The translations under genes were made by a program, and so were the position numbers. Of a DNA stretch of 64,000 nucleotides, positions 8,897 through 56,883 are shown piece after piece. Within the stretch, counting starts at the first letter, position 1; each line of letters begins with the position of its first letter. The notes beneath the pieces were generated by a model. It saw nothing but the letters and a program-made list of their open reading frames with translations. It searched no databases and had not been told where the DNA came from. The DNA is taken from assembly GCA_965214705.1 (NCBI GenBank), contig OZ243972.1:352001-416000 (forward strand), in the 5' to 3' direction. The stretch comes from Alphaproteobacteria bacterium (lineage in GTDB: Bacteria > Pseudomonadota > Alphaproteobacteria > UBA828).

Positions 8897-8934
8897 AGAC
8901 AATCCCGCCGCTACCGTGGACTAATTTCTCACCG

Positions 8935-9234
8935 CCGTTCACACTGTCGCGCCTGCTGAACGGCAAGGCGGGCGTATCGGCGAACATGGCCTTGGCGCTG
9001 GAGGATATCGGCTGGGGAACCGCCGAGCACTGGATGCGGATGCAGGCGAGCTACGAGCTTGCACAGGCGCGCCGCAACCGAGCCGTTGTCGAACGCCGCG
9101 CTGGCGCGCTTCAAGCTTGCCCGAGCGTCGTGCCAGCACTGCCGGACAGGGAGTTGTCCCGCATGCCGCCGGTCATCCGCTTCCTGACAACGGCAGGCTG
9201 CGACACGCCGCGCACCACGCGCGGCGCCGCCTGA
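8935..9234 (+). pseudogene. higA: HigA-type antitoxin (HTH-XRE) fragment lacking its N-terminus
   Basis: TLSRLLNGKAGVSANMALALEDIGWGTAEHWMRMQASYELAQAR. Confidence 0.7.
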
Positions 9235-9314
9235 TGCGCCTGTCGTGGAACGAGGTCCGCCCGAAATCTTGGTGAGCAATTTCCGGACCTTCGAGCTTCA
9301 CGATCTTGACTCGC

Positions 9315-9406
9315 GCATGGACGCAGCGATGATCGCGTCCACCTTTTTCGCCGCTTAGACGACATGCGCATCGGCAAGGTGAGCATAGCTCGCCATCGTC
9401 CGGTGC
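9315..9406 (-). pseudogene. Tyrosine recombinase C-terminal scrap 1
   Basis: HRTMASYAHLADAHVV*AAKKVDAIIAASM, the catalytic-Tyr helix. Confidence 0.6.
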
Positions 9407-9426
9407 TGCCTTAGGAGACAGCCAGA

Positions 9427-10209: not shown

Positions 10210-10299
10210 CCCGGCATGCCGGTATGTGGTGAAGACGGTCATCAACTGGTTCGCCAGCGCACAAACGCACGCCGGAACTGACGTTCAGAGCATCGGCAC

Positions 10300-10397
10300 C
10301 GATTCCCATGGCTGCTGCGATAAAGCCTCCCACTTTCTCCGCCGCCGCGACCAAGTGCGCATCGTCAAGATGGGCGTAGCCTGCCGTGGTCCGGTGT
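10300..10397 (-). pseudogene. Tyrosine recombinase C-terminal scrap 2
   Basis: RHRTTAGYAHLDDAHLVAAAEKVGGFIAAAM. Confidence 0.65.
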
Positions 10398-10441
10398 CTC
10401 TCCGCCCTTGACAGTCTTGGGCGCAGACAGACAGCTCCGTC

Positions 10442-10549
10442 ATTTCCGGGGCGTAACCGCCCCGGCCTCATTGAGGCCACCGTGAGCGTGTGAAGCAGAC
10501 CTTCCGCGCGGCGATTTCCGGGGCGTCACCGCCCCGGCCTCATTGAAGC
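10442..10549 (+). CRISPR. Orphan mini-array: two 36-nt type I-G-like repeats and one 36-nt spacer
   Basis: ATTTCCGGGGCGT(A/C)ACCGCCCCGGCCTCATTGA(G/A)GC at 10442-10477 and 10514-10549; internal hairpin and ATTGAAGC 3' end. Confidence 0.85.
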
Positions 10550-10580
10550 GCGTTGCCGATCCGGGTACGAGCGCGTCGAG

Positions 10581-11397
10581 TCAGTGGGACGAACTGGCCT
10601 CATTGCCACCGATAGCCCGCGCGATGGCCGCGCCGACGCGTTCTGCCGCCGCCTCGATCTCCCAGTCCCCGACATGGGCGTATCGTAGCGTCATGCTCGG
10701 GCGCTTGTGGCCGAGCAGGCGGGAGACGACCGGCAGCGGGATGCCCCGCAGCACGGCATGGCTGGCAAACGTATGACGAAGGTCATGCAGGCGCACGTCC
10801 TCGATCCCCGCTTCCCCGCGCACCGAGTACCAGAGCCTCAGATCGCACGAGAACGGCCGCCCGGGGTTCGACGGCGAGGGGAAGACATACGCGCACCCGG
10901 ATCGTGGTTGCCGTTCCAGGATGGCGCGGGCCGGCGCGTTCAGGAAGACCCGTCTCGGCCCGGTCTTGGTGTCGCTCAAATTGAGCGTGTCCTCGTCCAC
11001 ATCCTGCCAGCGAAGGGTCCGGATCTCGCTCTTCCGGCAGCCGGTCAGTAAGAGAAGGCGGATGATGTCCGCCTGTCGAGCGTGTGAGGCCCGCGCGTCG
11101 GCGTAGCGGTCCAGCACGCGGTGAAGGCGGCGGATCTCCTCGCGCGACAGAAAACGAGTGAGTTTCGGGCGGGGGTTGCGCTTGATGCCACGCGCCGGGT
11201 TCGTCTGGAGATGGCCGTAACCGGCCGCATGGTTCAGGATCTGGCGAAGCAGGCTCAGCGCGCGATTGGCCCCGCCGGGCGCGGACCGGCTATACTCGTC
11301 GAACCAGCGGGTCACGCCGGCCCGGGTGATCCGGTCCAGGGGCAACGCCCCGAACGCTGGAAGCAAGTGTGCTCTCAGGATCCAGGCTGCGGTCTTT
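10581..11397 (-). pseudogene. Outer-element intB, C-terminal part (3 of 3)
   Basis: LLLLTGCRKSEI, HDLRH, LLGH, RYAH; joins 13167-13446 once the IS110 is removed. Confidence 0.85.
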
Positions 11398-11562
11398 GCC
11401 GTGAAACAGATTCCGGCGAGGCACGCGTGGTGACGGTCCAACCCGCGAGTTGTGCGGAGTTGGCTGAGATCGCCGGCGTCGGCGCGGCAGTGACGAGCGG
11501 TGGACTTCCCCGATGTGGCCCGAAGCCGGTCCCGCGTAGCCGACAGGCGTGATGCAGGCTGC

Positions 11563-12813
11563 TCAGGCGACCTTGAGTTCCGCGTCCACGGGCTCGATGT
11601 AGCCGTAGCGGCGGAGCATGCGGATCCACCGAGGGGCGTTGCGCTTGACCATCAGCGCGTCGTAGTCGGCCGTGCGGTCGTAGTAGGGCCTGCCGGTCTT
11701 GAGGACGACATAGATGATGCGCAGCATCTTGTGTGCGCCGGCGACGATGGCGCGCTTGTAGCCGCGCCGGGCGGCGAGGGCGCGGTGGTGAGCCTCGAAC
11801 TGGCACCCCTTGGTTCGGGCCGCGCCGTGGGCACACTCGACGAGGCAGGCGCGCAGGGTCTTGGAACCCATGCGGGTGCGCGCGTTGCGGCGCTTGCCGC
11901 CACTTTCGTTGTTGCCGGGGCAGAGGCCGGCCCAGGCGGCGAAGTGCTCCTTGGAGGCGAACGCCTCGATATCGGGGCCGATCTCGATCAGGATCGTGGA
12001 CGCGGCGATGCGGTCGATGCCGGGGATGGTGGTCAGCAGGCGGAGCTGCTCCTCCCACGGGGTCATCTGCCCGTCGATCTTCTTGGTGTAGGACGCGATG
12101 CGCGCCTCGAGTGCGTCGTGCTCCTCCAGAAGATCGTTGAGCATGAAGCGATCGTTGTCGCCCAGGCTCAGGGAGAGCGCCTCGCCGAGCCCCTCCAGCT
12201 TGTTCGCGACGTGGCGGGTGAGGGAGGCGAGGATGACCTCCCGCTCCGTGCCTTGAGCCAGGCCGTCGAGGATCTTGCGGCCGTTGACGCCGAAGACATC
12301 GGAGATGATGCCGCCGATGCGCGCACCGGCACGGTCGATGATCTTCTGCACACGGTTGCGAACGGTGGAGCGCTGCCTGACCAGGACGCGGCGCTGGCGG
12401 CTCAGAGCGCGCAGCTCCCGGAACGGCTCAGGCGGAACATGGGACGGCGTGCAGAGCCCGAACTGGCACACACAGGCCAGCCACACGCTGTCGGCCACAT
12501 CGGTCTTGCGCCCCTTCAACTGCTTCACCTGGCGCGCGTGCACCAGGATCGCCTCGATCCCGGCCGCCTCCAGGGCCGCGAAGGGCGCCTGCCAGTAGAC
12601 CCCGGTCCCCTCCATGACCGCAGCCTCGACGCCGTGAGCGGTCAGCCATGCGACCATCTCCTCCAGACCGCTCGGCAGCGTGCTGAAGCAGCGCGTCTCC
12701 ACCACCGGCTCGCCCTCGCCCTCGCAGAGGCGAACCGTCGCGGTGATCTCCATCTTGTGCACGTCCAGACCCGCCGCGCGCGGCCGGACGACGTGCAAGC
12801 CTTCCGTCTTCAT
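11563..12813 (-). CDS. IS110-family DEDD recombinase/transposase
   Basis: AGLDVHK, VMEGTGVYW, GRKTDVAD, TIPGI, AWAGLCPGNNESGGK; GAGGAGG RBS before the ATG at 12813. Confidence 0.93.
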   Translation of the reverse strand: MKTEGLHVVRPRAAGLDVHKMEITATVRLCEGEGEPVVETRCFSTLPSGLEEMVAWLTAHGVEAAVMEGTGVYWQAPFAALEAAGIEAILVHARQVKQLKGRKTDVADSVWLACVCQFGLCTPSHVPPEPFRELRALSRQRRVLVRQRSTVRNRVQKIIDRAGARIGGIISDVFGVNGRKILDGLAQGTEREVILASLTRHVANKLEGLGEALSLSLGDNDRFMLNDLLEEHDALEARIASYTKKIDGQMTPWEEQLRLLTTIPGIDRIAASTILIEIGPDIEAFASKEHFAAWAGLCPGNNESGGKRRNARTRMGSKTLRACLVECAHGAARTKGCQFEAHHRALAARRGYKRAIVAGAHKMLRIIYVVLKTGRPYYDRTADYDALMVKRNAPRWIRMLRRYGYIEPVDAELKVA

Positions 12814-12844
12814 CGCCTTCCTCCTCATTTGCGCTCTCGCCACG

Positions 12845-13085
12845 GCGGCGTACGATCACGCCGTGGCATCGCCACGGTGGAGGCGGGGACAGCGGTCGGA
12901 AGGACACGCATCCGCCGAGCGGGTGCGGTTCGATTTGCCGCGCGTCCACGGCCAAAGGCCGGGTACAATACGGGGTGCGGAGCCGACCGCCGGAAGCAGT
13001 TTTGTCATCGGGAACTACGTCACCGATATAACGACGCTCACACGTCCCCGCCTCCGCCAACACCCATCCTGACACGGCAGAACCA
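12845..13085 (-). ncRNA. Candidate IS110 bridge RNA (boundaries approximate)
   Basis: ~350-bp non-coding end upstream of the recombinase; contains short matches to the donor end (TTTGCCG, 12934) and the target flanks (GACCGC, 12985; TTTTGT, 13000). Confidence 0.55.
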
Positions 13086-13166
13086 GTGCAGGCGTGAGAA
13101 AAACGTCAGCCCAAGCGCCCCTGTTTCATGCCACGGGGTGGCTCAGAACCGCGGGGACCATGACTG

Positions 13167-13446
13167 TTTTGTGTCGATGGTTTGCATCTGTCGAGACGCG
13201 CCCGCGCCGGACCTGCGGCGAATTCCGCGAAGGTCGGGACAGTTCCTCTTCTCGGCCTGCCGGACCGCGCTTCGGTCTCGACGGCGAGGCACTTGGCGCG
13301 CGCCTCCTCGACCCTCATCAACGCGGCAGACCCGAGCGTGATCCTGCGCGCGCCGCCCTCGCCCTTCCGGCAATAGACATAGCTCCGGTGCCCCGACGAC
13401 CGAACCCGCACGCCGAGACCGGTCTGGCGCGTGTCCCAGACGGTGT
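13167..13446 (-). pseudogene. Outer-element intB, middle part (2 of 3)
   Basis: TVWDTRQTGLGVRVRSSGHRSYVYCRKGEGGARRITLG, arm-binding domain. Confidence 0.85.
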
Positions 13447-13480
13447 GCACTACCTAAAGCGAACTGTTCGCGAACGAACC

Positions 13481-27810: not shown

Positions 27811-27890
27811 CTCGCGCGCTCACGGCGCTCCTCAACAAGTCCCCCTCGTAGTCAACCCAGATTCCGGCATGGGGTCTGCGTAACGCTTAC

Positions 27891-29091: not shown

Positions 29092-29093
29092 GC

Positions 29094-42036: not shown

Positions 42037-42701
42037 AAACCCTCGTCAGCCTCGACGGCCATGATCGCGGCCAGCACCGCCAGGCGTTCGCCCGCCGGCA
42101 TGGCCTCGTAGCGCCGGCCCCAGTTGGCCGCCTTGCGCTTGATGCGCTGGCGGTCGGTGAAGTTGCGGCCCGCGCAGCTCGCCCAGTGCACCCGGTCGGG
42201 CGCGAAGTTGAACCACACCACCTCGGTCCGCACCCGGGCCTGGGTCGTCACCTGCAGCGCCAGCCGGCGCCAGCCCGCCAGCAACTCGTCATAGAGCGCA
42301 GACGGGTGGCCCGAGACCATCACCTGGCAGGGCAGACCCTTGAGCAGTTCGAGGAGCGCGACGTGGTCGGCCTCCTCGTACTCGAAGCGGTAGCGCTGCG
42401 ACGAACGCCGGGTCGCGTGCAGATAGGGCGGATCGCTGTAGACCAGCTCCGGGCCCAGGAACGGGAACGAGGCCAGAAAGGAGTGGGCGCAGCCGTGCAC
42501 CAACTCCACCGGGTAGCCACAGTCGAAGGACTCAAGCGCCCGCTCGTCGCGGTCAATCCCGATCGAGCGCACGGCCGCAGGCTTGCGCTTCATCAGCGCC
42601 CCGCCCCCCAAGTGGCTCTCAATATAGACAGGGTGCGGGGGCATCAGCGCAATCAGCGCCTGGCTCAGACCACTCGTCGCCTTCGATCCGAAATACCCCA
42701 C
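42033..42701 (-). CDS. D12/Dam-class N6-adenine DNA methyltransferase
   Basis: YFGSK, YIESHLGGGA (motif I), YSDPPY (motif IV). Confidence 0.8.
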   Translation of the reverse strand: MGYFGSKATSGLSQALIALMPPHPVYIESHLGGGALMKRKPAAVRSIGIDRDERALESFDCGYPVELVHGCAHSFLASFPFLGPELVYSDPPYLHATRRSSQRYRFEYEEADHVALLELLKGLPCQVMVSGHPSALYDELLAGWRRLALQVTTQARVRTEVVWFNFAPDRVHWASCAGRNFTDRQRIKRKAANWGRRYEAMPAGERLAVLAAIMAVEADEGL

Positions 42702-43185
42702 CGGCTGCTCCTCTCATGCGAGAGAGCAACCCATAGGCGAGCGCGCCTATACAGTCAAGGGGCAGATCATCGACGCGCCGACGGCCAAACGGCACCGGCG
42801 GCGACCAACATCAGCACGCACTCAGATCTGGCGGCGGGGTACCTGGGTAGTTACAACGTTGGGACACTAGTGACCTTGAACTGCACCTTCAGCACCGGAA
42901 CGTTCAGTGTCACCCCATCCCCCGCCTTCCGCCTTGTCATCGCCGGCATCATGGAGGCCGATGCCGTTGCGGCATTTCGGCGCCGCCGGGCCGCCCCGGC
43001 GCGTCACCCGAACGCTGCCCCGCGCTCGGCGCCCTTCCGCAGCGGCGCCGCGGCCGGCCGGGTGCTCGCCCTCATCGCAGACGAGGCGGCGCACGCGCAC
43101 GCGCACGCGCCCATCTGCGCTGCCGCAGCCTCCGCCGCGCTAACCTCCCGAGCGCCCGCACCCCGAAAAGAGCGAGAGGCCTGCC

Positions 43186-43941
43186 GTGACGGGGCCGCGG
43201 GCGGGCATTCCCGAGAGGCGCGCATTGCGGCCGGCCTCTGCCGCCGGTGCGGCCGCCGGCCGCCTGCGCCCAAACGCACTTCGTGCGAGGAATGTCTCAA
43301 GCGCAAGCGTGTCGCCGACCGGGCCAGGTATGACAAGGGCAAACTTGCCGGCCTGCTCTACGGCGGGTTCGATGCCGAGGTTCGAAGGCGCAACGCCCGC
43401 GCCAGGTCGAAGCGGCGCTATGAGGCGCGCAGGGCCGCTGGAACATGTACCCATTGCGGCCACCGCCCTCCCGCAGACGGGCGAACCAGGTGCGAGCCAT
43501 GCCTCAGCCGGCGCAGTGCCGCCGACCGGGATCAATGGGCAAGCAGACGGGAGCGCCGCCCCGGCGCCCGACGGTGCCGCGAGGTGCGGAACCTGCGCGG
43601 CGAAGCAGGCGGGCAGGCCGTCACGACGGGAATATGCCAGGAAGCAGTACGCACGGCGGCGCGTGCGAGGGGCATGCGCGGATTGCGGCGAGCACGCAGC
43701 CGGCGCCTCGCGATGCCCCACCTACGCACGCAGGTCGTGGCACCGCTCGACGGAACACCGCGGACTGCCCGCAGGTCCGCCCCGCTTCCGGGTCGTCGTC
43801 ATCGACACCGGCGAGACCCTCGAGGGCGAGTGGGAAACCCTGGCCGAGGCCCGCGCCTCGCTGGCCTTCGCCAAGCTCGGTCCCGACGACGTCGAGATCG
43901 GCTGCGACATGCCCGGGATGACGACGCTGGCCTCGTGGTGA
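43186..43941 (+). pseudogene. Cys-rich repeated zinc-finger-like protein, frameshifted
   Basis: Repeated R..AG.C..CG...C..C units spread over two frames; C-terminal IDTGE..WET.AEARASLAFAKL. Confidence 0.6.
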
Positions 43942-44139
43942 TCGTCCTCGACGTGTCCACCCGACGCCGGGCAACTCCCTGGAAGAAGCGCGCGGGAGCC
44001 AGGACAGGGACTCGGATCGGCTCCCGCGCACCCAGCAGGGACAGCGCCAATGTGGGCGTGGCGAGCCCATATGCTCATGCCCGTGCCGCACAAGATCCGC
44101 GGCGTCAATCCCGTGCGGACAGCAATGTCCCAGCCTTCC

Positions 44140-44425
44140 CGGTAACCCGGCACTTCCCGCTCCAGCGCGAGAACGCCTTCGCCGCGATCCTTTCTCCCTG
44201 AGCGTCGCCGCACCGTCCGTCCGTCCGGACGGCGGACAAATCGCGTTGTGCAGCCTCGTCACCGCTGGTCTGCCAGCACTGACGCACATTGCGGCCAAGC
44301 CAACCTCTCGCCCGAACCGAGAGCCGCGAGCCTGCGAATTGGGCCATCGCGCGTGAGCTGCAACACCCGAAAACGCCCGAACGCAGCCCGGATCGTCCGT
44401 AATTGGGGAACGTGGGATGGTCCTG
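44140..44425 (+). mobile_element. ISAs1 3'-end remnant
   Basis: TRHFPLQRENAFAAILSP* plus a trailer homologous (inverted) to 7598-7870; ends CGTGGGATGGTCCTG. Confidence 0.8.
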
Positions 44426-44490
44426 GAATGTTTACTGCTTGTTGAAGACTGCCCGGAGCAACTAAGCTGGCGGCGGACATTGGTCTGGCA

Positions 44491-45699
44491 ATGTATGGAT
44501 ACAGAATGCCACGCTGGATAGACCTTGCTGCGCTCCTCACGGCGTGCGCTGACGAATCTCACGACGACGGCATCCGCATTGACAGCCATCTTGAACCGCT
44601 TTCCGGCGCCGGTGGCACGGTCAAGCCGGCGGTCTACAAGGGCGGGATATATCAGCGCGACCGGCGGTGGGTTTCTCCTGAAGATGAGGAACCGGCACAG
44701 GTCATCGTCATCGACAACGTCCCTTCGCAGGCCAACCGCCTTGAGGAAGCCTTGCGGCGGAACCGCGAATCCACGTCGATACCGGAGTTCGTGCTTGACC
44801 TTTCGGAACTGCCGCATCTTCCCGCGCACCTGCCCCGATCCATGTCGAGCCTCCAGTTCCCTCACCGCAATGCGGATGCATACCTGCGCGACGCGCAATT
44901 GGACGGGAAGGATTTCCTCAAGACCGAGATCGGCCAAGCGATCTTCGGCGCAACGGCTCAGACCTGCGGACCGTTGATCGCATGGTTCCCACAAGCACTG
45001 CTTTACGGCTTCTGGCAATCTCATCTGGGCAAGAAGCGCCAGAACACCAAGCACGCGCGTGCGTGGGTCTCGGAGATCATCGGCTGGCAGCCGGCTTCGA
45101 CAGAGACAAAGGTTCTCGGGTTGAAGGGGGATGCCCTCAATCTGAACACGGACGACACCGTGACGTTCAATCCCGACGACCGCACGACATGGGAGGTCGG
45201 CAAGGGCGCGAGGGACAAGGGCGAGAAGAGCGACAAGCTCTCCGAGATCGGTCATGGGCAAGTGCCGTTCATGGGAAGCGACGCTTCGGCGGCGGCAGTG
45301 TCATTTGCGAAGGTGACGCAGCGCGCGACGGTGTCCTTTGCCCAGCTCCGGCGAGTGAGCCTGGGGAGCGATTCGGGGGACGAGGATGCGGCCGTCAGGG
45401 CGCTGCTGGTCGCGCTCGGACTGCACGCCCATCAGCTAGCCTTCGGCCGGGGATTCGCACTGCGGTCCGGCGCCGAACTCCGGCCCAGATCGACGACGGC
45501 GATCTGGCTTGGTGCGGGAGGCGACGAGCCAATCGACCTCGGCGGGCCCGAAATGACGAGCGCACTCCTCGAGTCGGCAAGAGAGCATGCGGCCTCCCAG
45601 GGAGTGCCACTCGACGGTTGGGGAGCGCCCGCAACGAGGCTTACTCCGAAACCGAACCTCAGCGCCGCAATCCGGTCGACCTGGCCCGAACTGGCCTGA
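44491..45699 (+). CDS. cas7: Type I-G Cas7 (Csb1)
   Basis: V.PAVY, IDNVPSQANRLE, PHRNADAY, P.ALLYGFW.S, SEIGHGQVP, LRSGAEL. Confidence 0.9.
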   Translation: MYGYRMPRWIDLAALLTACADESHDDGIRIDSHLEPLSGAGGTVKPAVYKGGIYQRDRRWVSPEDEEPAQVIVIDNVPSQANRLEEALRRNRESTSIPEFVLDLSELPHLPAHLPRSMSSLQFPHRNADAYLRDAQLDGKDFLKTEIGQAIFGATAQTCGPLIAWFPQALLYGFWQSHLGKKRQNTKHARAWVSEIIGWQPASTETKVLGLKGDALNLNTDDTVTFNPDDRTTWEVGKGARDKGEKSDKLSEIGHGQVPFMGSDASAAAVSFAKVTQRATVSFAQLRRVSLGSDSGDEDAAVRALLVALGLHAHQLAFGRGFALRSGAELRPRSTTAIWLGAGGDEPIDLGGPEMTSALLESAREHAASQGVPLDGWGAPATRLTPKPNLSAAIRSTWPELA

Positions 45700-47144
45700 T
45701 GCTGGCGATCAGCGTCGAGTTCCTGCACGGGACCTTCCGCGGTGACCCGGATGGCACCGCGGTCACCGGAAGGCTGACCCGAGGCGAGTGGCCGCCGTCT
45801 CCGGCACGGTTGTTCGCCGCGCTCGTGGCGGCCGACGGAACCCGGCAGGCTTCGCGAGTCACGGATGGCCGCGAGCTCGTCTGGCTGGAAAGACTGCCGC
45901 CCCCTGCGATTCATGCGCAACCCGACCCCTGGCATCAGAAGCTTCATCCCAGGTATGTCGTCGAGCACGTTTCGCGCGGCAAGCCGACGAAGACAACGCA
46001 TCATGAGTATGCTGCTCGAAGGGGCATTCTCTACCGCCCGGGCGTGCGGGTTGTGCCTCGCAATCCCCAGGTGGTCTACCGATGGGACGTCGAGCCGCCG
46101 AATTCGGTGATCTTCGACTCGATAGTGCGCCGCGCTGCGCGGGTGGGCTATCTCGGTACATCCGACTCCCCCGTGCGCGTCCGCGTGGTGACAGAGATGC
46201 CGCGCGGCGCGGCAGTCGAGGTGTTCGTTCCAGATCCGAAAGGCGGTGCCCGAATCGGTGTCCCAAGGTCGGGCGATGTCGATGCGCTGGACCGGATGTA
46301 CGACATCTGGCAGGAACGGGGTGCGTCGGCGACGCGCTCACAGTTTGCGGCACTCCTCCACTTGGCAACCTACCGGTCGCCCGGCGATCGTGAAGAGACG
46401 AACCGCGGAGAGGTGGTGGCGTGGCTGCGACTGCGCCCGGCGATCTCGGGGCGAAGGATTTCTGCTGTTGCCGCGTTGTTCAAAGATGCCGTCCTCAGCC
46501 GCCACCAGCGCGTGCATGGGGAGCCGCCTGCAATTCTGCACGGTCACGGGTTCGCGCGCTCGGGTTACGACCTGGCCCGTTATCTGGCGCTGCCTGATGT
46601 CGGCTTTCCACGTTCGCGGGGCCGCATCCACGGCCTGGCCCTGTGGCTTCCGCCTGGGTCCGACCGCGTTCAACGCCGGCAGGCCCGCGATGCGGCTCTT
46701 TTCATCGACGCGCTCGTCGGCCGGGACATCAAGGCGTCCGTGGAACCGCATGGAGACGAGGAACGCCCCTGGGCCGCGAATCCACGCCGCTGGCAGGGGC
46801 CATCGGCGGCTTGGATAACGGCGTTCCCCGTGATTCACGAGAGGCGGGGCGTTCCCGGTCTCTCGGAAGCCGTTCGCTGGTGCCGTCACGCCGGCCTGCC
46901 TGAGCCGGTGGCCTTTCGTTCACTGCGCACCCCGCTGATTCCGGGCGCGGTCGATCTGGCGCCGGCGGAGGTCAACCGTCCGGGGCGTCCAGCGCTACCG
47001 TATTCTCACGCCGAGTTCCGCTTCGCCGAACCCATCACGGGACCGGTCGTCGTTGGCGCCGGGCGGCAGCGTGGTCTTGGACTCTGCGCGCCAGTCGATG
47101 AGTGGCGCGAGGTCAGCACCTGGCGGCTTGGTGCGACCGTCTGA
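45699..47144 (+). CDS. csb2: Type I-G Csb2 (Cas5/Cas6 fusion)
   Basis: Start overlaps the cas7 stop; EWPPSPARLFAALVA, YLGTSDS, GPVVVGAGRQRGLGLC. Confidence 0.9.
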   Translation: MLAISVEFLHGTFRGDPDGTAVTGRLTRGEWPPSPARLFAALVAADGTRQASRVTDGRELVWLERLPPPAIHAQPDPWHQKLHPRYVVEHVSRGKPTKTTHHEYAARRGILYRPGVRVVPRNPQVVYRWDVEPPNSVIFDSIVRRAARVGYLGTSDSPVRVRVVTEMPRGAAVEVFVPDPKGGARIGVPRSGDVDALDRMYDIWQERGASATRSQFAALLHLATYRSPGDREETNRGEVVAWLRLRPAISGRRISAVAALFKDAVLSRHQRVHGEPPAILHGHGFARSGYDLARYLALPDVGFPRSRGRIHGLALWLPPGSDRVQRRQARDAALFIDALVGRDIKASVEPHGDEERPWAANPRRWQGPSAAWITAFPVIHERRGVPGLSEAVRWCRHAGLPEPVAFRSLRTPLIPGAVDLAPAEVNRPGRPALPYSHAEFRFAEPITGPVVVGAGRQRGLGLCAPVDEWREVSTWRLGATV

Positions 47145-49926
47145 TCCCGCGCGGATTCCGCCATTGCCTACGTTCACGGAGTTCTACCGCGCCATCAATG
47201 GACGCGATCCGTTTCCATGGCAGGCGCGTCTGGCCCGTCACGTCGCGAGCAAGGAGCAATGGCCAACCGAGATCGGCATACCCACCGGGCTCGGCAAGAC
47301 CGCCTGTCTCGACATCGCAGTGTGGTGGTTGGCGTCTCAGTCGGACCGCGTGCCGAAACGTCGCACCGCACCAACGCGCATCTGGTGGGTCGTCAACCGG
47401 CGCCTTCTCGTGGATTCGACGGCCGCGCACGCGAGGGATATCGCGAGCGCGCTCCGCAATCCCGCGTCGGTGGGGTCGGATACTATGGCGCGTGAGGTCA
47501 TCGAGCGGATCGCCGAGCGGCTCCGTGCGCTTTGGGTCGACCCCGACGCGCCTCCACTGGACGTGATCAGCCTCCGGGGCGGCATTGCTTCGCGCACCCC
47601 CACGGACCCCGCACGGCCGACCGTTGTCCTCTGCACGCTGCCGATGTACGGCTCGCGTCTGCTGTTTCGAGGCTATGGGTCGAGTCGACGGCCGGTCGAC
47701 GCGGCGATGGCCGGTACCGACAGCCTGGTGCTGCTGGACGAGGCGCACCTTGCGGGGCACCTGAGAACGTTGATCCCTGCTCTCGCCGCTTGTACTGCAA
47801 CTGCGCGCGAGGTACTCGGTCCGGAGCGCTCACGGCCGACGGTCGTCTCATTGACCGCGACAGGGGAGTCCGCACAGAGCGAACGGTTCGATCTGGACGG
47901 CGAAGACCAGGCGCACCCGGTCGTTGGTCAGCGGCTGGACGCCCGGAAGCCTCTGCAAGTGAACATCGCAAATGGCGAGTTGGCGAGACGGCTCGCGGAG
48001 GCTGCCGTCGCGCTCGTTCAGAAGGCTCCCGCTCCCGCTGCATGTCTTGTGTTCAGCAACACGCCGAAGACGGCACGAGAGGCATTCGAATTCTTGCGCA
48101 AGATGCTGCCGGAAGCGGAGATCCTGCTCCTCACGGGGCGCGTGCGTGAACGCGAAGCGACGCGGACCCGTGCCCGAATTCTCGATCCGGAGACAGGGAT
48201 GGCAACGGCCCGTGCCGCGGACGCACCGCGCGAGAATCACTTGATCGTGGTGGCGACGCAGACCTTGGAAGTAGGGGCTGATATCGACGCCGAATATCTT
48301 GTGACGGAGGCCTGCGGTGTCAGAGCGCTTACCCAACGATTGGGGCGGCTGAACAGACTCGGGCGTTTTCCCCACGCGCGTACAACTTACGTCCATGTGC
48401 CGCCATCGAGGTCTCGCCGAGTGAGTGGCTCGGCTACGGACATGGACACGTGGCCGGTGTACGGTCCGGAACCGAACACGGTACTCGATCGGCTGCAGAA
48501 ATCGCGATCCGGGAGCGCTGCCGAGACCGTCGATCTTTCTCCTCGGTCGATTGCCTCGGTATTGGGGCCGCCGCTCGACGACTCTGGCCGTGCACCAGAA
48601 ATCCTTCCGGGACTGCTGTATGAATGGACGAAGACGACAACGCCCCCCGAGGGCGAGGCGCCGGTGGAACCGTACTTCAGTGGCATCGCCGCCTCCCGGC
48701 TGTCGGTGGCCTTGCTTTGGCGCGCACACGTTCCGGCCCCGGGCCGGCGGCTATGGCCCCGGGGTACGGATCGCGAGGCCATCGAGGTGCCGTTGGTAGA
48801 GGCGCGCGAGGTTCTTGGGGAGGCTGTGATGTGCCGGTTGGCGCCGGATGGCGTCACGGTCGAGGAAGTATCCACCGGCAAATTGCATCCTGGGGACCGG
48901 ATCGTCGTCGCCAGCGACATGGGACTCATGGACCGGTTCGGTTGGAATCCCACCGCTTCAGATCCCGTCCCGGACGCGTCTCTCGCCAACCTGGGTCTGC
49001 CGCTCGATGCTGTCGCAATCAGGCGACTGTGCGGCGCGAACCTTGGTGGGTTCGTCGACACCGCATTGGGTATTGTCGACGACGACCGCGACCTCGACGA
49101 GACGGAACGGTCAGAAGCGGTGTCCGACATCCTTACGATACTCAGAGATACGCCAGTGCCGGCCGGGTGGGAGGAGGCGGAGTGGACCGAATTCATCGCC
49201 CGGCTGCGCCCGCGCGTTCTCGAACCTCGCAACGAAGTACCACGCCTGCTTGTCGACCAGCCTGGCGACGAGGCCCTGAACGATGAGTTTGACGAATTGT
49301 CGCTGGGCCCCGTCGCCGTCGAACTGGACCAGCATGGTCACGCTGTCGGGACCCGTGCAAGGACGGTGGCGGAACGGATCGGCCTGCCCGATGACTTACT
49401 GGAAGTGGTCGAGCGCGCCGCTCGGCTCCACGACATCGGCAAGGCCGACGAGCGCTTTCAGCGGTGGCTGGACTCACGGCGCGAATCGGGGCCGCTTCTT
49501 GCGAAGTCGAACGCGCCACGGCACCGCTGGGAGGCGATGCGCGTGTCGTCCGGCTGGCCCAGGGGAGGGCGGCACGAGGATCTGTCCGCGCGGCTGGTAA
49601 GCGCGTGGCTGGCGCTGACGCCCGATTGGGGCACGCCCCTTCAACGCGACCTCCTGGTCCATCTGGTGATCAGCCATCATGGAAAGGGGCGCCCGCTGGT
49701 GCCGCCCGCGGCCGACGGTTCCACCGGTTCTGTGGGTGGAGTCGTGGAGGGAGTATCGATATCGGCGGACGCGGACCTTGCCATCGTCGACTGGGAGCAG
49801 CCAAGTCGATTTCGGCAGCTGCAGGACCGGCTCGGGCCTTGGGGACTGGCATTGCTGGAGTGCGTCGTCATCCGCGCCGACCATGCCGTTTCGGCCGGCG
49901 TCGACGGGACACTGGGGGACACCTGA
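47131..49926 (+). CDS. cas3: Type I-G Cas3 helicase with C-terminal HD nuclease
   Basis: PFPWQ, PTGLGKT, DEAH, TQTLEVGADID, QRLGRLNR; LHDIGK, RHE, SHHG, RADH. Confidence 0.93.
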   Translation: MRPSDPARIPPLPTFTEFYRAINGRDPFPWQARLARHVASKEQWPTEIGIPTGLGKTACLDIAVWWLASQSDRVPKRRTAPTRIWWVVNRRLLVDSTAAHARDIASALRNPASVGSDTMAREVIERIAERLRALWVDPDAPPLDVISLRGGIASRTPTDPARPTVVLCTLPMYGSRLLFRGYGSSRRPVDAAMAGTDSLVLLDEAHLAGHLRTLIPALAACTATAREVLGPERSRPTVVSLTATGESAQSERFDLDGEDQAHPVVGQRLDARKPLQVNIANGELARRLAEAAVALVQKAPAPAACLVFSNTPKTAREAFEFLRKMLPEAEILLLTGRVREREATRTRARILDPETGMATARAADAPRENHLIVVATQTLEVGADIDAEYLVTEACGVRALTQRLGRLNRLGRFPHARTTYVHVPPSRSRRVSGSATDMDTWPVYGPEPNTVLDRLQKSRSGSAAETVDLSPRSIASVLGPPLDDSGRAPEILPGLLYEWTKTTTPPEGEAPVEPYFSGIAASRLSVALLWRAHVPAPGRRLWPRGTDREAIEVPLVEAREVLGEAVMCRLAPDGVTVEEVSTGKLHPGDRIVVASDMGLMDRFGWNPTASDPVPDASLANLGLPLDAVAIRRLCGANLGGFVDTALGIVDDDRDLDETERSEAVSDILTILRDTPVPAGWEEAEWTEFIARLRPRVLEPRNEVPRLLVDQPGDEALNDEFDELSLGPVAVELDQHGHAVGTRARTVAERIGLPDDLLEVVERAARLHDIGKADERFQRWLDSRRESGPLLAKSNAPRHRWEAMRVSSGWPRGGRHEDLSARLVSAWLALTPDWGTPLQRDLLVHLVISHHGKGRPLVPPAADGSTGSVGGVVEGVSISADADLAIVDWEQPSRFRQLQDRLGPWGLALLECVVIRADHAVSAGVDGTLGDT

Positions 49927-50831
49927 TGCATGCTCTCACCTGTCCGGGTCTACCCGCTTCGTGGGTCAATGCCTGGCTCGCGGGTATAGGTGCGACGGTG
50001 CTGGATTGCCGCATTCGACTGCACTGGACCGAAGAGGATGCGCCCGTGGCCGTGCTCTCATCGGTCGAGATCGATCCGGTTGCGGCGTTGGTCGAATCGT
50101 GGCCGGACGAAGCATTTCTGAGTGAGCTGCCGATTGCCGAGAACTGGCGCGTGGATGGCGAACTGAAGCGGAAGGTATCGATCGAGCAGTTCGTTGCACG
50201 AGTGCAGGGGGCGCGTGGAGATCCGCATGCCTGGACGCTCTCCTCAACAATGACGGATCTAAGTGTCTACCAGGACGGAGAGGTTGCTCACGCTCCCCTC
50301 GACCCCGCCGCTACCGGAACGACGAAATGGCTGCATCATCGGTTGCTGAAGGTTCACGAACTGATCGGGCCGGGACGCGAGGAACGTCTGCGTGATTCGC
50401 TGATCGGGCGGGCGCAGCGAGTCAAGAGCAACGGCCTTGGGTTTGACAGCACGCGGCTAGGGTCTTTGGCGGACTCATCGGATCCGTGGGTCGAACCCGT
50501 GATTGAGTTGCTGGCGTTCTTCGGTTTGGCGGTGTTTCCGGTACGAGGTCGGGGCGTGGACCGTCGGCTCAGTCGCTACGGTGATCCGGACGAGCGGCAG
50601 CGGGGGTGGCGGAGAGCGCCGGGTAGTAACGAGCCACGACGGCTCGTCTGGCCTGCATGGCACCAACCTCTTTCCGCTGCCGGCGTCGATGCGTTGCTGG
50701 ATGTATGGAGACCCTTCTCCCCTAAGCAAGCTTGGGGCGTCCTCGGCGTCCACGCTGGTTGGCGGAGCGTCGAGTATGAAGCCAGGGCCAAGGCCGATCC
50801 CACGAGAGGCATCGGATCGGAAATGCTTTGA
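49926..50831 (+). CDS. Putative type I-G large subunit (short Cas8u/Csb3-like, ~301 aa)
   Basis: Translationally coupled between cas3 and cas4; N-terminal WLAGIG and VIELLAFFGL..FPV resemble Cas8u. Confidence 0.6.
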   Translation: MHALTCPGLPASWVNAWLAGIGATVLDCRIRLHWTEEDAPVAVLSSVEIDPVAALVESWPDEAFLSELPIAENWRVDGELKRKVSIEQFVARVQGARGDPHAWTLSSTMTDLSVYQDGEVAHAPLDPAATGTTKWLHHRLLKVHELIGPGREERLRDSLIGRAQRVKSNGLGFDSTRLGSLADSSDPWVEPVIELLAFFGLAVFPVRGRGVDRRLSRYGDPDERQRGWRRAPGSNEPRRLVWPAWHQPLSAAGVDALLDVWRPFSPKQAWGVLGVHAGWRSVEYEARAKADPTRGIGSEML

Positions 50832-51445
50832 TGCTCGAACCAATCATTCTTATCTCCGCGATAGAGCACTTCGTCTATTGTCCGCGTCAATGTGCACTCA
50901 TCCACTGCGATGGCGTTTGGTCCGACAATGCTCATACCGTCCGGGGCTCGCGGGCCCACCGGCGCGTTGATGGTGGCCAGCACAGCGCGGTGCGGGGTCG
51001 TCGAGTGCTGCGCGGCATTCCTCTCTGGTCGGAGTCGCTGGGGCTGTCCGGGCGCGCCGATGTCGTCGAGATGGACGGCGATGCGATCCGGCCAGTGGAA
51101 TACAAATCTGGCGTCCGGCACGGAGTTGCCGCTGATCTCCAACTCTGCGCGCAGGCCCTTTGCCTGGAAGAGATGCTCGGAGTTGCCGTCCCGTCAGGCA
51201 GCGTCTGGTACGGGGGGACACGACGGCGCGTGGAGGTCGAGTTCACCGGCGCATTGCGGGATCAGGTGTTAGTCGCCATCGCCTCTATTCGCGAGCAACT
51301 GCTCAAAGGGAAGTTGCCCGCCGCAGTGAACGACGACCGATGCAACGCGTGCCAACTCCTGCATCATTGTCTGCCCGGGGTGACCAATGCGACACGCAAG
51401 GTCCGGCGGTACCTGTCCGACGTCGTGTTCGAATGCGCTACCTGA
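50831..51445 (+). CDS. cas4: Cas4 exonuclease
   Basis: YCPRQ, G.ADVVE, PVEYK, QLCAQALCLEEM, C..C.L...C. Confidence 0.92.
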   Translation: MLEPIILISAIEHFVYCPRQCALIHCDGVWSDNAHTVRGSRAHRRVDGGQHSAVRGRRVLRGIPLWSESLGLSGRADVVEMDGDAIRPVEYKSGVRHGVAADLQLCAQALCLEEMLGVAVPSGSVWYGGTRRRVEVEFTGALRDQVLVAIASIREQLLKGKLPAAVNDDRCNACQLLHHCLPGVTNATRKVRRYLSDVVFECAT

Positions 51446-51542
51446 GCACCCTGTACGTTCGCAACGTAAGCGGTACGCAGACCCCATACCGGAATCTGGG
51501 TTGACTACGGAGAGTTTTGGATGAGCGCCGTGAGCGCGCGAG

Positions 51543-53237
51543 TCACTTTGCCTCGGGCTGGAAGTTCCACGGCAGAAGCTCCTGGATGCCCGACTGCGGG
51601 TGGCCCTTGGCGATCTTCTCGAGCGTGCTCCGCATCCAGGCGTAGGGCTCGACGCCGTTCATCTTGCAGGTCTCGATCAGCGAGGCGATGCGGGCCCAGG
51701 CTTGCGCACCCTCGTCGTTGCCGGCGAAGAGCGCATTCTTGGCTGTGAGCTTCAGCGGCCGGATTCGGTTTTCCACCAGGTTCGAGTCGATCTCGACGCG
51801 GCCGTCGTGCAGGAACTCCAGCAGCCCGTCCCACTGGTTGGCGATATAGGTCAGCTTCTCGCCGAGACGGGAGCGCGGTGAGACGCGCGAGCGCTGCTCG
51901 TCGAGCCAGACACCGAAGGTGTTCACGATCGGCGCCGACTCCTCCCAACGGATCGCGCGGCGCTCCGCCGGCGGCTTACCCCGGATCTTCTTCTCGATCG
52001 CATAGAGCTTCGCGATCCGATTCAGACCGGCCAGCGCGATCGGCGATGCGCTCGAGTCGTATACCTCTTTCAGCTTCCGTCTTACATGCGCCCAACAGAG
52101 GGCCCGCGTCACAGGGCCTTCCGCCCGGTCCGGCCGCGCCAGGATGTTGTGGCCCGAGTAGCCGTCGAGCTGCACCGTCCCCGAAAAGCCCTCCATAAGC
52201 TCGGCGCCATACTTGCCGCCGCGGCCGGGCGCATAGCGATAGACGACGCCCGGCGGGTCCGTGCCGCTCCAGTGGCGCTCGTCACGCACAAGGGTCCACA
52301 TGTAGCCCGTCTTCGTCTTGCCCCGGCCCGGGTCGAGAACGCGGATCGTGGTCTCGTCCAGACCCAGGTGATCCGACTTCTTCAGCTCATCCTCCAGGCA
52401 AGCGACCACGGGGCGCAGGTGAAACGACGCCTGGCCCACCCACGTCGCCAGCGTCGCGCGGTGAACCTCGATCCCCGAGCGCTCGTAAATCTGCGACTGA
52501 CGGTAGAGCGGGCAATGATCGCCGTACTTCGCGATCAGCACCTGCGCCAGAAGAGCCTCGGTGGGAAGGCCGCCCTCCACCAGAGCGGCCGGCGCCGGCG
52601 ACTGCACCACCCCGCCCCCCTTGCACTTGTTGCAGGCGTAGCGGGGGCGCACGGTCTCGATGACGGTGAACTTCGCCGGCTCATAGTCCAGACGCTCGCT
52701 TCGGTCCTCGCCGATCTTCGTCATCTCGCCGCAGCCGCAGGGGCACATGATCGTGTCCGGCTCGATCACCTCCTCGCGCCGGTCGACCTGGGGCCCGAAG
52801 CGCACCCCGCTGCGCGACCCCCGGGAAGAGCGCCGCCGGCGCTTGCCGCCAGCCCCCTCGTCCTGCTCCTGGTCATCTGCCTCGGGCCGACCGCCGGCTT
52901 CAGCGATCGCCGCCCAAAACTCCTCGAACGTAAGCTGGCGCTCGTCCTCGTTGAGCTTCTCGGAGCGCGGACCGAACAGCGCCTTCCTGAGCTCCTTGTT
53001 GAGATGCTCAAGCCGGCTGATCTGCTCCGCGCTGTGCGCGTTCTCGGCCTCCAGCCGTGCCGCCCGCGCTTCCGCTGTCTGCCTCGCCGCCTCCGCTTCG
53101 CACAGGGCCGCTTCGGTCGCACGGCGCGCCGCGCGCTCGTCGTCAAGCTCCGCATGCAGGGCCACCAGCGCCGCCGAAACCACCGCAGGCGACGGCGAAC
53201 CGGCGCTGCTGGGGGGTGAGGGCGTGGCCTTCGGCAT
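51543..53237 (-). CDS. tnpC: IS66 transposase TnpC
   Basis: Close homolog of 26095-27810. Confidence 0.93.
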   Translation of the reverse strand: MPKATPSPPSSAGSPSPAVVSAALVALHAELDDERAARRATEAALCEAEAARQTAEARAARLEAENAHSAEQISRLEHLNKELRKALFGPRSEKLNEDERQLTFEEFWAAIAEAGGRPEADDQEQDEGAGGKRRRRSSRGSRSGVRFGPQVDRREEVIEPDTIMCPCGCGEMTKIGEDRSERLDYEPAKFTVIETVRPRYACNKCKGGGVVQSPAPAALVEGGLPTEALLAQVLIAKYGDHCPLYRQSQIYERSGIEVHRATLATWVGQASFHLRPVVACLEDELKKSDHLGLDETTIRVLDPGRGKTKTGYMWTLVRDERHWSGTDPPGVVYRYAPGRGGKYGAELMEGFSGTVQLDGYSGHNILARPDRAEGPVTRALCWAHVRRKLKEVYDSSASPIALAGLNRIAKLYAIEKKIRGKPPAERRAIRWEESAPIVNTFGVWLDEQRSRVSPRSRLGEKLTYIANQWDGLLEFLHDGRVEIDSNLVENRIRPLKLTAKNALFAGNDEGAQAWARIASLIETCKMNGVEPYAWMRSTLEKIAKGHPQSGIQELLPWNFQPEAK

Positions 53238-53330
53238 GGCCGATCCCTTAATCCGATTCGCCGATGCGTGACCAGGGAAAAGTGCAGACGGGACCGCGAC
53301 CGAAATCTGCGGCCCCGCCTGCGTGCCGCC

Positions 53331-53681
53331 TCACTCCGCCGCCAGCGGGCGGCGAACCGGGAGGGCCTTCACCCGGCGCCAGTCAAGGCCCTCGAAAAGA
53401 GCCTCGAACTGGCCCTTCGTAAGGCGCATCACACCGTCCTCGATCCGGGGCCAGGCGAAACGACCCCGCTCAAGACGCTTGTAGGTCATCACCAGACCGG
53501 TGCCGTCCCACGCAAGGAGCTTGAGCCTGTCGCCGCGGCGCGAGCGGAAGATCACGATCACCCCGGAATAGATATCGAGATCCAGCTCCCCCGCCGCCGT
53601 CGCCGCAAGCGCGTCGTGGCCGCGACGAAAATCAACCGGCCGCGTCGCCAACACGATGCGAAGCGAGGGCACCGCGATCAT
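53331..53681 (-). CDS. tnpB: IS66 TnpB
   Basis: Close homolog of 25651-26001. Confidence 0.92.
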   Translation of the reverse strand: MIAVPSLRIVLATRPVDFRRGHDALAATAAGELDLDIYSGVIVIFRSRRGDRLKLLAWDGTGLVMTYKRLERGRFAWPRIEDGVMRLTKGQFEALFEGLDWRRVKALPVRRPLAAE

Positions 53682-54103
53682 GACGACGCCCGACCCAGAC
53701 CCGAGGCCACAGCCACGATCCGATCGACCGCGCTCTCCACCGGAAGGCGAACGACCACGCCCAGCGCCTCGATCGCCACCGTCCGCTCGGACGTCACGCT
53801 ATCAACCACCACGGGAACAAATGGCGGTGCAGAGCCACCAATCCGAGCGCCCGGAAGAGTTCCCTCCCGCGCGCGCCGCCGCCACTTGGTCAGGGTCGTA
53901 TCGCTGACGCCATGGCGGCGCGCGACCGCCGCAACCGAAGAGCCCGGCTCAAAGCTCTCCGAGACAATCCGCGCCTTCTCATCGTCCGGCCAGCGTCGCA
54001 TGGGGGCCGGCTCAGACGGAGCCGGGGCGGCTCCCTCAGAAGCTGGGAGCTCAACCGAAGCAACAGCGACACCGTCGCCAGATGCCAAAATCGAATCTGT
54101 CAT
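53678..54103 (-). CDS. tnpA: IS66 TnpA (single HTH)
   Basis: RRWPDDEKARIVSES..VARRHGVS..WRR. Confidence 0.85.
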   Translation of the reverse strand: MTDSILASGDGVAVASVELPASEGAAPAPSEPAPMRRWPDDEKARIVSESFEPGSSVAAVARRHGVSDTTLTKWRRRAREGTLPGARIGGSAPPFVPVVVDSVTSERTVAIEALGVVVRLPVESAVDRIVAVASGLGRASS

Positions 54104-55188
54104 CGCGATCTCTCCTGTGTGGCTCGTGGTCAAGGCGGAGAGTCAGCCCCGAAATCAGATCCGCTGGAAGTATGGGGGCCCGATACCGCTTACTTCGCAA
54201 CCACCGCGCCCGAGTCCAGCACCGGCGGGGATCGTTGACGGTGTCGTCACCCGATGGGAGCCAACGTGTCCCACTTGAGGCGATCGACGCGTTGATAGTG
54301 CTGGGCGGGGCGCAGGTCACCATGCAGGCATTGGATGCATGTGTGCGGCGGGGCATACGCGTCGCGGCCCTCCACCGGAGCGGTGCCGTGCGCTTCCTCG
54401 TAAGCGGCGCGACCAAAGGCAACATTCACCTCCGCACAGCGCTCTTTGAGGCGGTCATGGATGAATCCCGCTCGCTCGAGTTGTCGAGGGCTATTGTCGC
54501 GGCAAAACTGCAGAATAGCCGGAGGGTCGTTGGCCGCTGGTCGCGTGACGAAAGGGATACGGTAAAAAGCAAGCGACTCGCCGACCGGAGCGAGCAGATT
54601 CGGCAACGAATTGCGCGACTGGCGGACGCGGTGTCGGGCGATTCCGTGCGCGGTATCGAAGGAGATGCGGCCCGGATTTACTTCCGGGCGGTGGAGCAGG
54701 TCGTGGCGCCGGCCAAACTGGGCTTCTCGTCGAGGTCGCGGCGACCGCCTCGTGACCCCGTCAATGCGATGTTGAGCTTCTGCTACGGGCTGTTGGTGAC
54801 CGAGTGCTGCGGTGCGCTGGAGAGTGTCGGTCTAGACTACCAGATGGGGTTTTTCCATCGCCCGCGGGCAGGCCGTCCCTCCCTTGCGCTGGATCTGGCA
54901 GAAGAGCTGCGCGCGTTGACGGATCGGTTCGTGGTGTCGCTGGTACGCCGCCGGCAAATCGGACCTGCAGGCTTCGACTATACGCCTGGCGGCGGCGTTT
55001 ACCTGAACGACGACGCGAGAACCGCTCTGATCGAGGCGTGGGAAGAATACAAGGAAACAGAAACTGCGCATAGAATACTCGGGCGACCAGTTGGACGATG
55101 GGCGATCCCCTCGGTCCAGGCAACACTGCTTGCGCGGCATCTACGCGGAGACCTCGCTGCGTATCCGCCATTTGTTCTCCCATAACCG

Positions 55189-55479
55189 ATGGACGTATTG
55201 GTCACCTACGACATCGCAGATACGGAATCCACTGGAGCGTTGCGCCTTAGGCGGATCTCGGACGTGTGCGAGAAGTATGGGCAGCGGGTGCAGTTCTCGG
55301 TCTTCGAATGCCGCCTCTCCAAAGCGAGGCTGGTCCGGTTTGTCGGGGAGGTGGAAGACATCATCGACCGCGATCGCGACTCCGTGCTCGTCTACCGTTT
55401 CCCCGGTGGAATTGAGGCCGCGACGCTGCGTTTAGGTCGGCGTCCGGAACATGCTCTTGGCAAGCCTTGGATCCTATGA
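55189..55479 (+). CDS. cas2: Cas2
   Basis: VLVTYDI, YGQRVQFSVFEC, DSVLVY. Confidence 0.93.
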   Translation: MDVLVTYDIADTESTGALRLRRISDVCEKYGQRVQFSVFECRLSKARLVRFVGEVEDIIDRDRDSVLVYRFPGGIEAATLRLGRRPEHALGKPWIL

Positions 55480-55674: not shown

Positions 55675-56817
55675 GTGTCGCCGGGGTTTCGACTCCGGCC
55701 TTCGTTGAGCGACGACGCATGTGCAATCCGGGACGGCGACGGTCGCGCGTCGCCGGGGTTTCGACTCCGGCCTTCGTTGAGCGACCGGGGCCTCCACCGA
55801 TACCGACACCGTGTGGCGGTGTCGCCGGGGTTTCGACTCCGGCCTTCGTTGAGCGTCGCTACCCGCCATGGGAACTAGCTGGGGGCAGGGGGTGTCGCCG
55901 GGGTTTCGACTCCGGCCTTCGTTGAGCGAGCAGCGTGTCGGCGACGATCACGATGCGCTCGGCGTGTGTCGCCGGGGTTTCGACTCCGGCCTTCGTTGAG
56001 CGCACCTAGGGGACAGGGTGCTCACCGCGGACGGCAGGTGTCGCCGGGGTTTCGACTCCGGCCTTCGTTGAGCGTACCCGCGCCAGCGCGCTGGCCTGCC
56101 CGGCCGAGTGGTGTCGCCGGGGTTTCGACTCCGGCCTTCGTTGAGCGGCCCACGTCTGCGACGACGCGCGCGTCTACGGCGACGGTGTCGCCGGGGTTTC
56201 GACTCCGGCCTTCGTTGAGCGATTTCGGGCAGCGATTTGGTCCATCCCGGACCGCGAGTGTCGCCGGGGTTTCGACTCCGGCCTTCGTTGAGCGGGATAG
56301 CGGGGAATCGGAGGTACCGGACCCAGTCAGCGTGTGTCGCCGGGGTTTCGACTCCGGCCTTCGTTGAGCGCCCGTCGAGTAGTAGTTGCACGACGGACCG
56401 GGGTGGGTGTCGCCGGGGTTTCGACTCCGGCCTTCGTTGAGCGACGACGCGGGACGAGCGGCGGCGTATCTGGAGACGCAGGTGTCGCCGGGGTTTCGAC
56501 TCCGGCCTTCGTTGAGCGCTGGCGCCGGTCGATACCTATACCGTGCCCACCATGGACGTGTCGCCGGGGTTTCGACTCCGGCCTTCGTTGAGCGAGGCGC
56601 GTATGTTGAGGTGGTTCATGTCACGTCTCCCGGTGTCGCCGGGGTTTCGACTCCGGCCTTCGTTGAGCGTCCGAGGTGGCGACTGCGACGGGCAACCGTT
56701 CACGGGGTGTCGCCGGGGTTTCGACTCCGGCCTTCGTTGAGCGGCCATGCAGGTCGGGCTGTACCGCAGGGTCGTCGGAGGTGTCGCCGGGGTTTCGACT
56801 CCGGCCTTCGTTGAGCG
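55675..56817 (+). CRISPR. CRISPR array: 16 repeats (37 nt) and 15 spacers (35-39 nt)
   Basis: Repeat GTGTCGCCGGGGTTTCGACTCCGGCCTTCGTTGAGCG starting at 55675, 55747, 55819 ... 56707, 56781. Confidence 0.97.
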
Positions 56818-56883
56818 ACGTAGAGGTCGCAGGCGTCAGGGCAAATTCGTCCATGGGGTTGGTAGGCTGCTGAGTTTTCGGTA

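Follow-up and report, generated by a model that had tools for sequence, protein, structure and literature searches.

Mobile elements, chiefly viruses and plasmids, are already known to carry CRISPR mini-arrays and solitary repeats, as described in the parts of PMC11656645 and PMC10651486 drawn on here. The mini-arrays described in the review PMC11656645 hold one spacer between two host-type repeats, have no nearby cas genes, and lie on or next to a mobile element. The Racr units in the sections of PMC10651486 used here are solitary repeats of the host's CRISPR subtype, and the term "I-G" has 0 occurrences in the main text of that paper. In Streptococcus, a phage that integrates in type II-A CRISPR repeats can delete or transfer spacers (10.1101/2020.10.09.333658, in the part used here). 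For type I-G, the relevant part of PMC9638904 describes a Thioalkalivibrio system with a 36-nt repeat, in which Csb2 cuts 4 nt past the stem and leaves an 8-nt 5' handle.

Here we describe a unit of two type I-G repeats and one spacer, hereafter the mini-array, in a 64,000-nt stretch of DNA that we call the window (C1:352001-416000) and that belongs to an alphaproteobacterial genome (G000) of 7.92 Mb in three contigs. It resembles the mini-arrays of PMC11656645 in its single spacer, its two repeats of host type, the lack of nearby cas genes, and its apparent position on or next to a mobile element. It differs from them in that no target was found for the spacer, in that the carrier is a decayed tyrosine-integrase element and not a virus, and in that its repeat equals that of no host array, the stem and the last 20-21 nt being common and the loop different. 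As with the Racr units, related elements bear a single CRISPR-like repeat of the host subtype in an intergenic spot; unlike Racr, the window's unit is not solitary and has no predicted promoter, and many of the homologous units are without a hairpin. The parallel with the repeat-integrating prophage is that a repeat-bearing mobile element would exchange DNA with an array at the repeat, but the prophage uses the repeat as its attachment site, whereas the attachment site of the integrase family considered here is the tRNA-fMet 3' half, next to which the repeat is found. The Thioalkalivibrio arrays are alike in the 36-nt repeat, the stem-loop, the predicted cut 4 nt past the stem and the 8-nt 5' handle; the mini-array, unlike them, is without adjacent cas genes, is without a leader, and has two repeats only. 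What appears to be added to these systems is the carrier, a tRNA-fMet-targeting tyrosine-integrase family in an alphaproteobacterial genus, and a breakpoint inside the repeat. The mini-array is a real CRISPR fragment linked to a mobile element. Our preferred reading, which we hold tentatively and at a little less than even confidence, is that it is a piece of an array that was joined by an exchange within a repeat and left behind as a scar.

The mini-array and its immediate surroundings comprise the following features, in window coordinates.

10290..10417, minus strand: relic of another tyrosine integrase, corresponding to its last ~43 residues; holds a TTGACA box at 10408-10413.
10442..10477, plus strand: repeat R1, 36 nt; loop variant (A); 3' end ATTGAGGC.
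10478..10513, plus strand: spacer, 36 nt, without a match in any search.
10514..10549, plus strand: repeat R2, 36 nt; 3' end ATTGAAGC; identical at 35/36 positions to the repeat of a metagenome I-G array; matched by Rfam CRISPR-DR16.
10550..10580, no strand assigned: 31-nt linker that separates the repeat from the integrase stop codon; conserved across the nine copies known from an integrase sub-lineage.
10581..11402, minus strand: C-terminal part of a tyrosine integrase with the catalytic domain, equivalent to residues 114-385 of a 386-aa paralogue (93% identical); the ORF extends to 11441.
11403..13162, minus strand: IS110-family insertion that splits the integrase; transposase ORF at 11563-12843; boundaries approximate (tblastn).
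13163..13447, minus strand: N-terminal part of the integrase with the Arm DNA-binding domain, equivalent to residues 23-117 of the paralogue.

The two 36-nt repeats and the 36-nt spacer that the earlier note had reported were borne out in both coordinates and sequence. R1 and R2 are identical at 34/36 positions, the loop and the final eight bases each holding one difference. When the window was searched with R2 at up to 3 mismatches, exactly 2 sites were recovered, and two or more sites were obtained in 0/100 shuffles. Both repeats are predicted to fold into an 8-bp stem, a 4-nt loop, and a 12-nt tail, at -17.3 kcal/mol for R1 and -20.8 kcal/mol for R2, and folds as good as these occurred in 0/200 shuffles. 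The Rfam CRISPR-DR16 model matched positions 10513-10549 with 39 bits, its gathering score being 35. The spacer is unique in the genome. The mini-array is not an assembly artefact, because contigs from public runs of two studies match across the locus with 0 differences (X1, 9045-10743; X4, 9418-10740; X5, 10333-10743). The motif GCAGAC occurs 19 nt ahead of both R1 and R2 and was taken as chance.

Judged by sequence, the repeats of the mini-array are genuine type I-G. Their layout is a stem, 4 nt, and an 8-nt handle, as in I-G repeats. Among the metagenome_contigs, one contig only (L055) carries the mini-array repeat variant: immediately after cas4g/cas1g and cas2 it has 32 identical repeats that equal R2 at 35/36 positions, with spacers 36-40 nt long between them. 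The I-G typing is sound because this R2 variant lies beside cas4g/cas1g-cas2 and because the layout fits a measured I-G system; sister repeats are also found beside I-G cas genes in the present genome, and the type I-G call of the earlier note was thereby upheld. The arrays of related genomes have variant forms of this 36-nt repeat, which depart from R2 at 3 to 6 positions, and spacers of 35-42 nt, a range that includes the 36 nt of the mini-array spacer. The exact mini-array repeat had 0 matches in genome_contigs, and none of the 31 spacers of L055 equals that of the mini-array, the best agreement being 20/36.

The earlier note had contrasted the mini-array repeat with that of a "resident" array 45 kb away. 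The locus of this array, at 42-57 kb of the window, is itself type I-G; its two parts are as follows.

42186..55435, plus strand: type I-G cas locus with Csb1, Csb2, Cas3g, a Cas3-extension, and Cas4g/Cas1g split by an IS66 element at 51543-53681.
55677..56818, plus strand: array of this I-G locus, with 16 copies of a different 37-nt I-G-type repeat that ends CGTTGAGCG.

The more specific observation, that the repeat end is unlike that of this nearby array, was correct: R1 ends ATTGAGGC and R2 ends ATTGAAGC, against CGTTGAGCG in the array. An IS1595-type transposase gene (56887-57846) is situated at the trailer end of the array. Further on, a TrwC-type relaxase ORF at 62917-64000 on the plus strand runs past the end of the window, and a conjugative or mobilisable element therefore adjoins the CRISPR locus.

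A check for a cognate I-G locus elsewhere in the genome, as the earlier note had proposed, revealed two further complete loci. BLAST of the mini-array repeat against the whole genome detected an array at C1:1946552-1947832 with 18 repeats, plus one more beyond an IS66 element, and an array at C3:1657062-1658447 with 17 repeats. Each of these arrays (C1:1.93-1.95 Mb and C3:1.655-1.667 Mb) lies beside a complete I-G set of Cas3g, Csb1, Csb2, and Cas4g/Cas1g, with Cas8g2 additionally present at the C1 locus; the C3 array is flanked on its opposite side by a type III-B Cmr set. The genome has two intact Cas4g/Cas1g genes. The repeats of both arrays have the stem CCGGGGC/GCCCCGG and the last 20-21 nt in common with the mini-array repeat, whereas the first four bases and the loop differ; the mini-array repeat differs from the two host repeats at 5 and 7 of 36 positions. 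The genome contains three type I-G loci, no two of which have a repeat variant in common (window 42186-56818; C1:1.931-1.950 Mb, locus L003; C3:1.640-1.674 Mb, loci L004 and L005). The 47 spacers of the three large arrays had no full-length match in their own genome, the best match being 26/28. After the last repeat of the C1 array (C1:1949612-1950586) comes the same terminal sequence as in the trailer of the window array. A single degenerate repeat at C3:616339 is followed by the short trailer sequence of the C1 array and probably remains from an array since lost.

At its own location the mini-array is an orphan, as had been claimed. There was no cas gene among the ORFs scanned in 1-31.5 kb of the window, nor among those scanned within 30 kb of the mini-array, and the leader motif common to the two complete arrays of the genome is absent beside it, with no likeness in the comparison.

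The mini-array is located just past an integrase stop codon, where the earlier note had placed it: the minus-strand ORF 10581-11441 has its stop 31 nt after R2. When the 386-aa integrase paralogue encoded on C3 was aligned with the window, its residues 114-385 fell at 11402-10587 and its residues 23-117 at 13447-13163, on the two sides of the IS110 insertion. At the other end of the mini-array, only ~24 nt separate R1 from the integrase relic at ~10290-10417. The relic is 72% identical to the C-terminus of a protein of genome G007 that has an integrase domain and 40% identical to residues 341-385 of a window paralogue; Pfam assigned no family to ORF 10187-10480 in the relic region, and the integrase nature of the relic comes from the protein comparisons. 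The TTGACA box reported 34 nt ahead of R1 is present at 10408-10413; it is situated inside this relic of another integrase gene and is without a -10 partner by consensus scan. Across 10000-10800 the consensus scan returned 0 promoter-like and 0 terminator-like sites. The statement that the mini-array is carried by a mobile element is supported in that homologous elements bear a repeat-like unit at the equivalent place, but the window's element is broken on both sides and its integrase split by IS110.

Several other features of the surrounding DNA were recorded. Upstream of the mini-array and on the same strand are a HigA-like antitoxin ORF (8881-9234, plus strand) and an ORF with a DUF7669 and a NucS-like nuclease domain (9427-10209, plus strand). 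A partial DDE transposase ORF (7812-8468, minus strand) has at its start a perfect 12-nt tandem repeat of 6.4 copies (8388-8464). Rfam matched group II intron domains D1-D4 at 13905-14134 on the plus strand with 87.8 bits, with no obvious reverse transcriptase among the adjacent listed ORFs. In the ORF at 30310-31548 on the minus strand, a Druantia DruA-like domain occurs together with a DDE_Tnp_1-associated domain.

The integrase family to which the carrier belongs had matches at E <= 1e-40 in 23/44 genomes of the taxonomic family searched, with 55 scored matches in the present genome and 49 in genome G004. By tblastn in the present genome, 106/120 hits reached the C-terminus. The tyrosine-integrase family is extremely expanded, and its members often occur as adjacent pairs that are ~45% identical and have overlapping stop and start codons (window 23671-24831, 27832-30239, and 32057-34330). 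In the paralogues L017, L045, and L027, the integrase stop codon leads straight into the 3' half of tRNA-fMet. An intact tRNA-fMet is found at C3:666311-666387, with direct copies of its 3' half at 713405 and 758090, 47 and 92 kb downstream, which points to two islands integrated in tandem. Because the paralogues end in the tRNA-fMet 3' half and partial tRNA-fMet copies lie downstream, we conclude that the family inserts at tRNA-fMet. An ARAGORN search of L008, L007, and L013, beside the G004 copy, detected no tRNA; the tRNA-fMet-like stretch beside that copy was recognized by eye and by motif scan. The mini-array repeat was itself considered as the attachment site of the integrase and was rejected, as the site of the family is the tRNA-fMet 3' half, from which the integrase is separated by the repeat.

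In one integrase sub-lineage, the stop codon is followed by the conserved 31-nt linker and then by a single I-G-repeat-like unit, after which, in the copies where it is readable, come a tRNA-like 5' half and the attachment core. In 3/106 C-terminal hits (window, C1:3418627, and C3:1649003), a repeat-like unit was present at a distance of 34 nt, counted from the first base of the integrase stop. A repeat-like unit was also found in 6 of the 21 integrases listed from 30 loci of the family's genomes, the window's own included (L016, L018, L019, L028, L042, and L043), and locus L008 of genome G004 has a repeat-like unit at the same place. Nine copies of unit plus linker all align, that is, eight besides the window's, six of which are in other genomes of the genus. 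Among the nine, two repeats with a spacer are seen in the window's copy only; the others appear single, to judge from one match per locus in the motif scans and from the aligned stretches. A strong hairpin (-12 kcal/mol or better) is predicted in 4/9 copies, and the hairpin is weak in 5/9. In the seven copies more distant from the window's, the repeat 3' half is identical at 13-16/19 positions and the linker at 19-23/31. The weak hairpins in 5/9 copies, together with 3' halves that are barely better kept than the linker, argue against strong selection on the unit. The linker-plus-repeat pattern recovered no copy from genome_contigs besides the known G004 one, and intact elements in G003, G004, and G008 had no second repeat unit at their other end, in searches that covered 20 kb to each side. 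At C3:1649035-1649075 (L005), a decayed solitary unit with an integrase pair directly adjoins the Cmr and I-G locus and is oriented as its array.

The nearest relative of the window's copy is L008 of G004, which is 96% identical over window positions 10531-10600. Comparison of the two gave the following identities.

Linker: 31/31 positions identical.
Repeat 3' half: 19/19 positions identical.
Repeat 5' half: 8/17 positions identical.

Beyond the repeat 5' half, the likeness of the two sequences is at chance level. From this abrupt divergence in the 5' half, after an identical linker and 3' half, it follows that one of the two lineages underwent an exchange within its repeat. In its repeat 5' half, L008 resembles L019 of the same genome, so L008 is perhaps the recombinant and the window form the older one; on these alignments, the recombinant could be either the window lineage or the L008 lineage.

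Of the suggestions put forward in the earlier note, the best-fitting is that the mini-array is a captured piece of another array. A piece of an I-G array, consisting of R1, the spacer, and at least the 5' half of R2, would have been joined to the solitary repeat of the element, the exchange taking place within the 19 nt common to the solitary repeat and real arrays. Decay would have come later, with IS110 splitting the integrase and a fragment of another integrase coming to abut the other side. This direction and mechanism of the exchange are the ones we infer as most likely. Because the element has decayed, the unit is best read as a scar among dead mobile elements and not as a maintained weapon. 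Against the scar reading, no donor array with the mini-array spacer was found, the ~24 nt ahead of R1 show no assignable spacer, leader, or tRNA-like sequence, and the geometry of 36 + 36 + 36 nt is equally expected from the insertion of a spacer in place. The intact state of the two repeats and the lack of differences among the runs of two studies also fit a maintained function. Alignment of the sequence after R1 and the spacer with the tRNA-like flanks of related copies gave no clear homology either way. If the plus strand were transcribed, the I-G cutting rule would predict one crRNA, made of the 8-nt handle AUUGAGGC, the 36-nt spacer, and the R2 hairpin. In the two cognate host arrays the handle is AUUGAAGC, which differs by one base from that of the mini-array, and this change allows the tail of the free repeat to self-pair. 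From the shared stem and tail, the two intact I-G systems of the genome could process mini-array RNA. The mini-array is now probably inert.

A functional alternative is that the mini-array works as such, its one guide being processed and loaded by the host I-G Cascade against a competing mobile element. The two complete host I-G loci with the same stem and last 20-21 nt would be available for this, both repeats have canonical folds, and the spacer has a canonical length. Mini-arrays of this kind are described in the parts of the review PMC11656645 used here, and viral contigs L057 and L058 each have two repeats of the same family and a 37-nt spacer, in the same arrangement as in the mini-array; because these contigs carry them, mini-arrays on mobile elements do exist for these I-G systems. 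L057 and L058 are related IMG/VR contigs of 28 and 39 kb, and the first repeat of each has its stem broken by a long insert. There is also no terminator-like site between the mini-array and the plus-strand ORF ending at 10209, so that read-through transcription of the unit may be possible. The search for a target, which the earlier note had proposed for phage, plasmid, and host sequences, was negative throughout. By blastn against phages and plasmids there was no target, with best E-values of 0.1 and 0.3; viral and metagenome contigs, searched with a pattern that left every 6th base free, gave 0 matches; 48 other genomes of the order contained none at up to 3 mismatches, and the genome itself none at up to 9 mismatches. 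To the lack of a target in any search are added the absence of a consensus promoter (10000-10800) and of a leader motif, the A-to-G change that lets the tail of R1, the would-be source of the handle, self-pair, and the broken integrase of the element. We consider a working mini-array unlikely.

It is likewise improbable that the mini-array was born in place, through host Cas4/Cas1-Cas2 mistaking a lone R2-type repeat for an array, inserting a 36-nt spacer, and duplicating the repeat. The geometry is exactly that left by integration, with two full 36-nt copies around a 36-nt insert; a lone repeat is the usual state in related elements, and the two intact Cas4g/Cas1g genes would provide the machinery. 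However, an exchange is needed in any case, as the 5' half is identical to that of the nearest relative at 8/17 positions while the adjoining 50 nt are identical. The leader motif of the two complete arrays is absent, the two repeat copies differ at 2 positions, and no intermediate with a single R2-type repeat was seen, the exact repeat having 0 matches in genome_contigs.

Very unlikely is a repeat decoy, or RNA anti-CRISPR, in which transcribed units would bind Csb2 and Cas7 and so lower I-G immunity against the element: solitary repeats of the host subtype on mobile elements can act in this way (PMC10651486, in the part used here), units of the sub-lineage occur in I-G-rich hosts, and on viral contig L059 an ORF that is capsid-like by eye is immediately followed by one repeat at the contig end, but the two repeats in the window are 36 nt apart and hence not solitary by the rule of that paper (no second repeat within 100 bp), there is no consensus promoter at 10000-10800, the integrase gene has the CRISPR-sense strand as its antisense, and 5/9 units have a weak hairpin, with 3' halves barely better kept than the linker.

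Whatever the origin of the second repeat, a chromosomal family of integrase elements in alphaproteobacteria bears an I-G repeat at a fixed place, and one copy has an in-repeat breakpoint and a spacer. It is possible, although doubtful, that the solitary I-G repeat is a working handle on the host CRISPR machinery, either for spacer insertion by Cas4/Cas1-Cas2 or for repeat-spacer swaps with host arrays. If this were so, a handle that acts by insertion would mean that a new array had arisen naturally on a mobile element, and a handle that acts by swapping would mean that immune memory is carried between genomes by the element. More strains could provide natural evidence for DNA exchange between the repeat of a mobile element and a host array, or for how arrays start.
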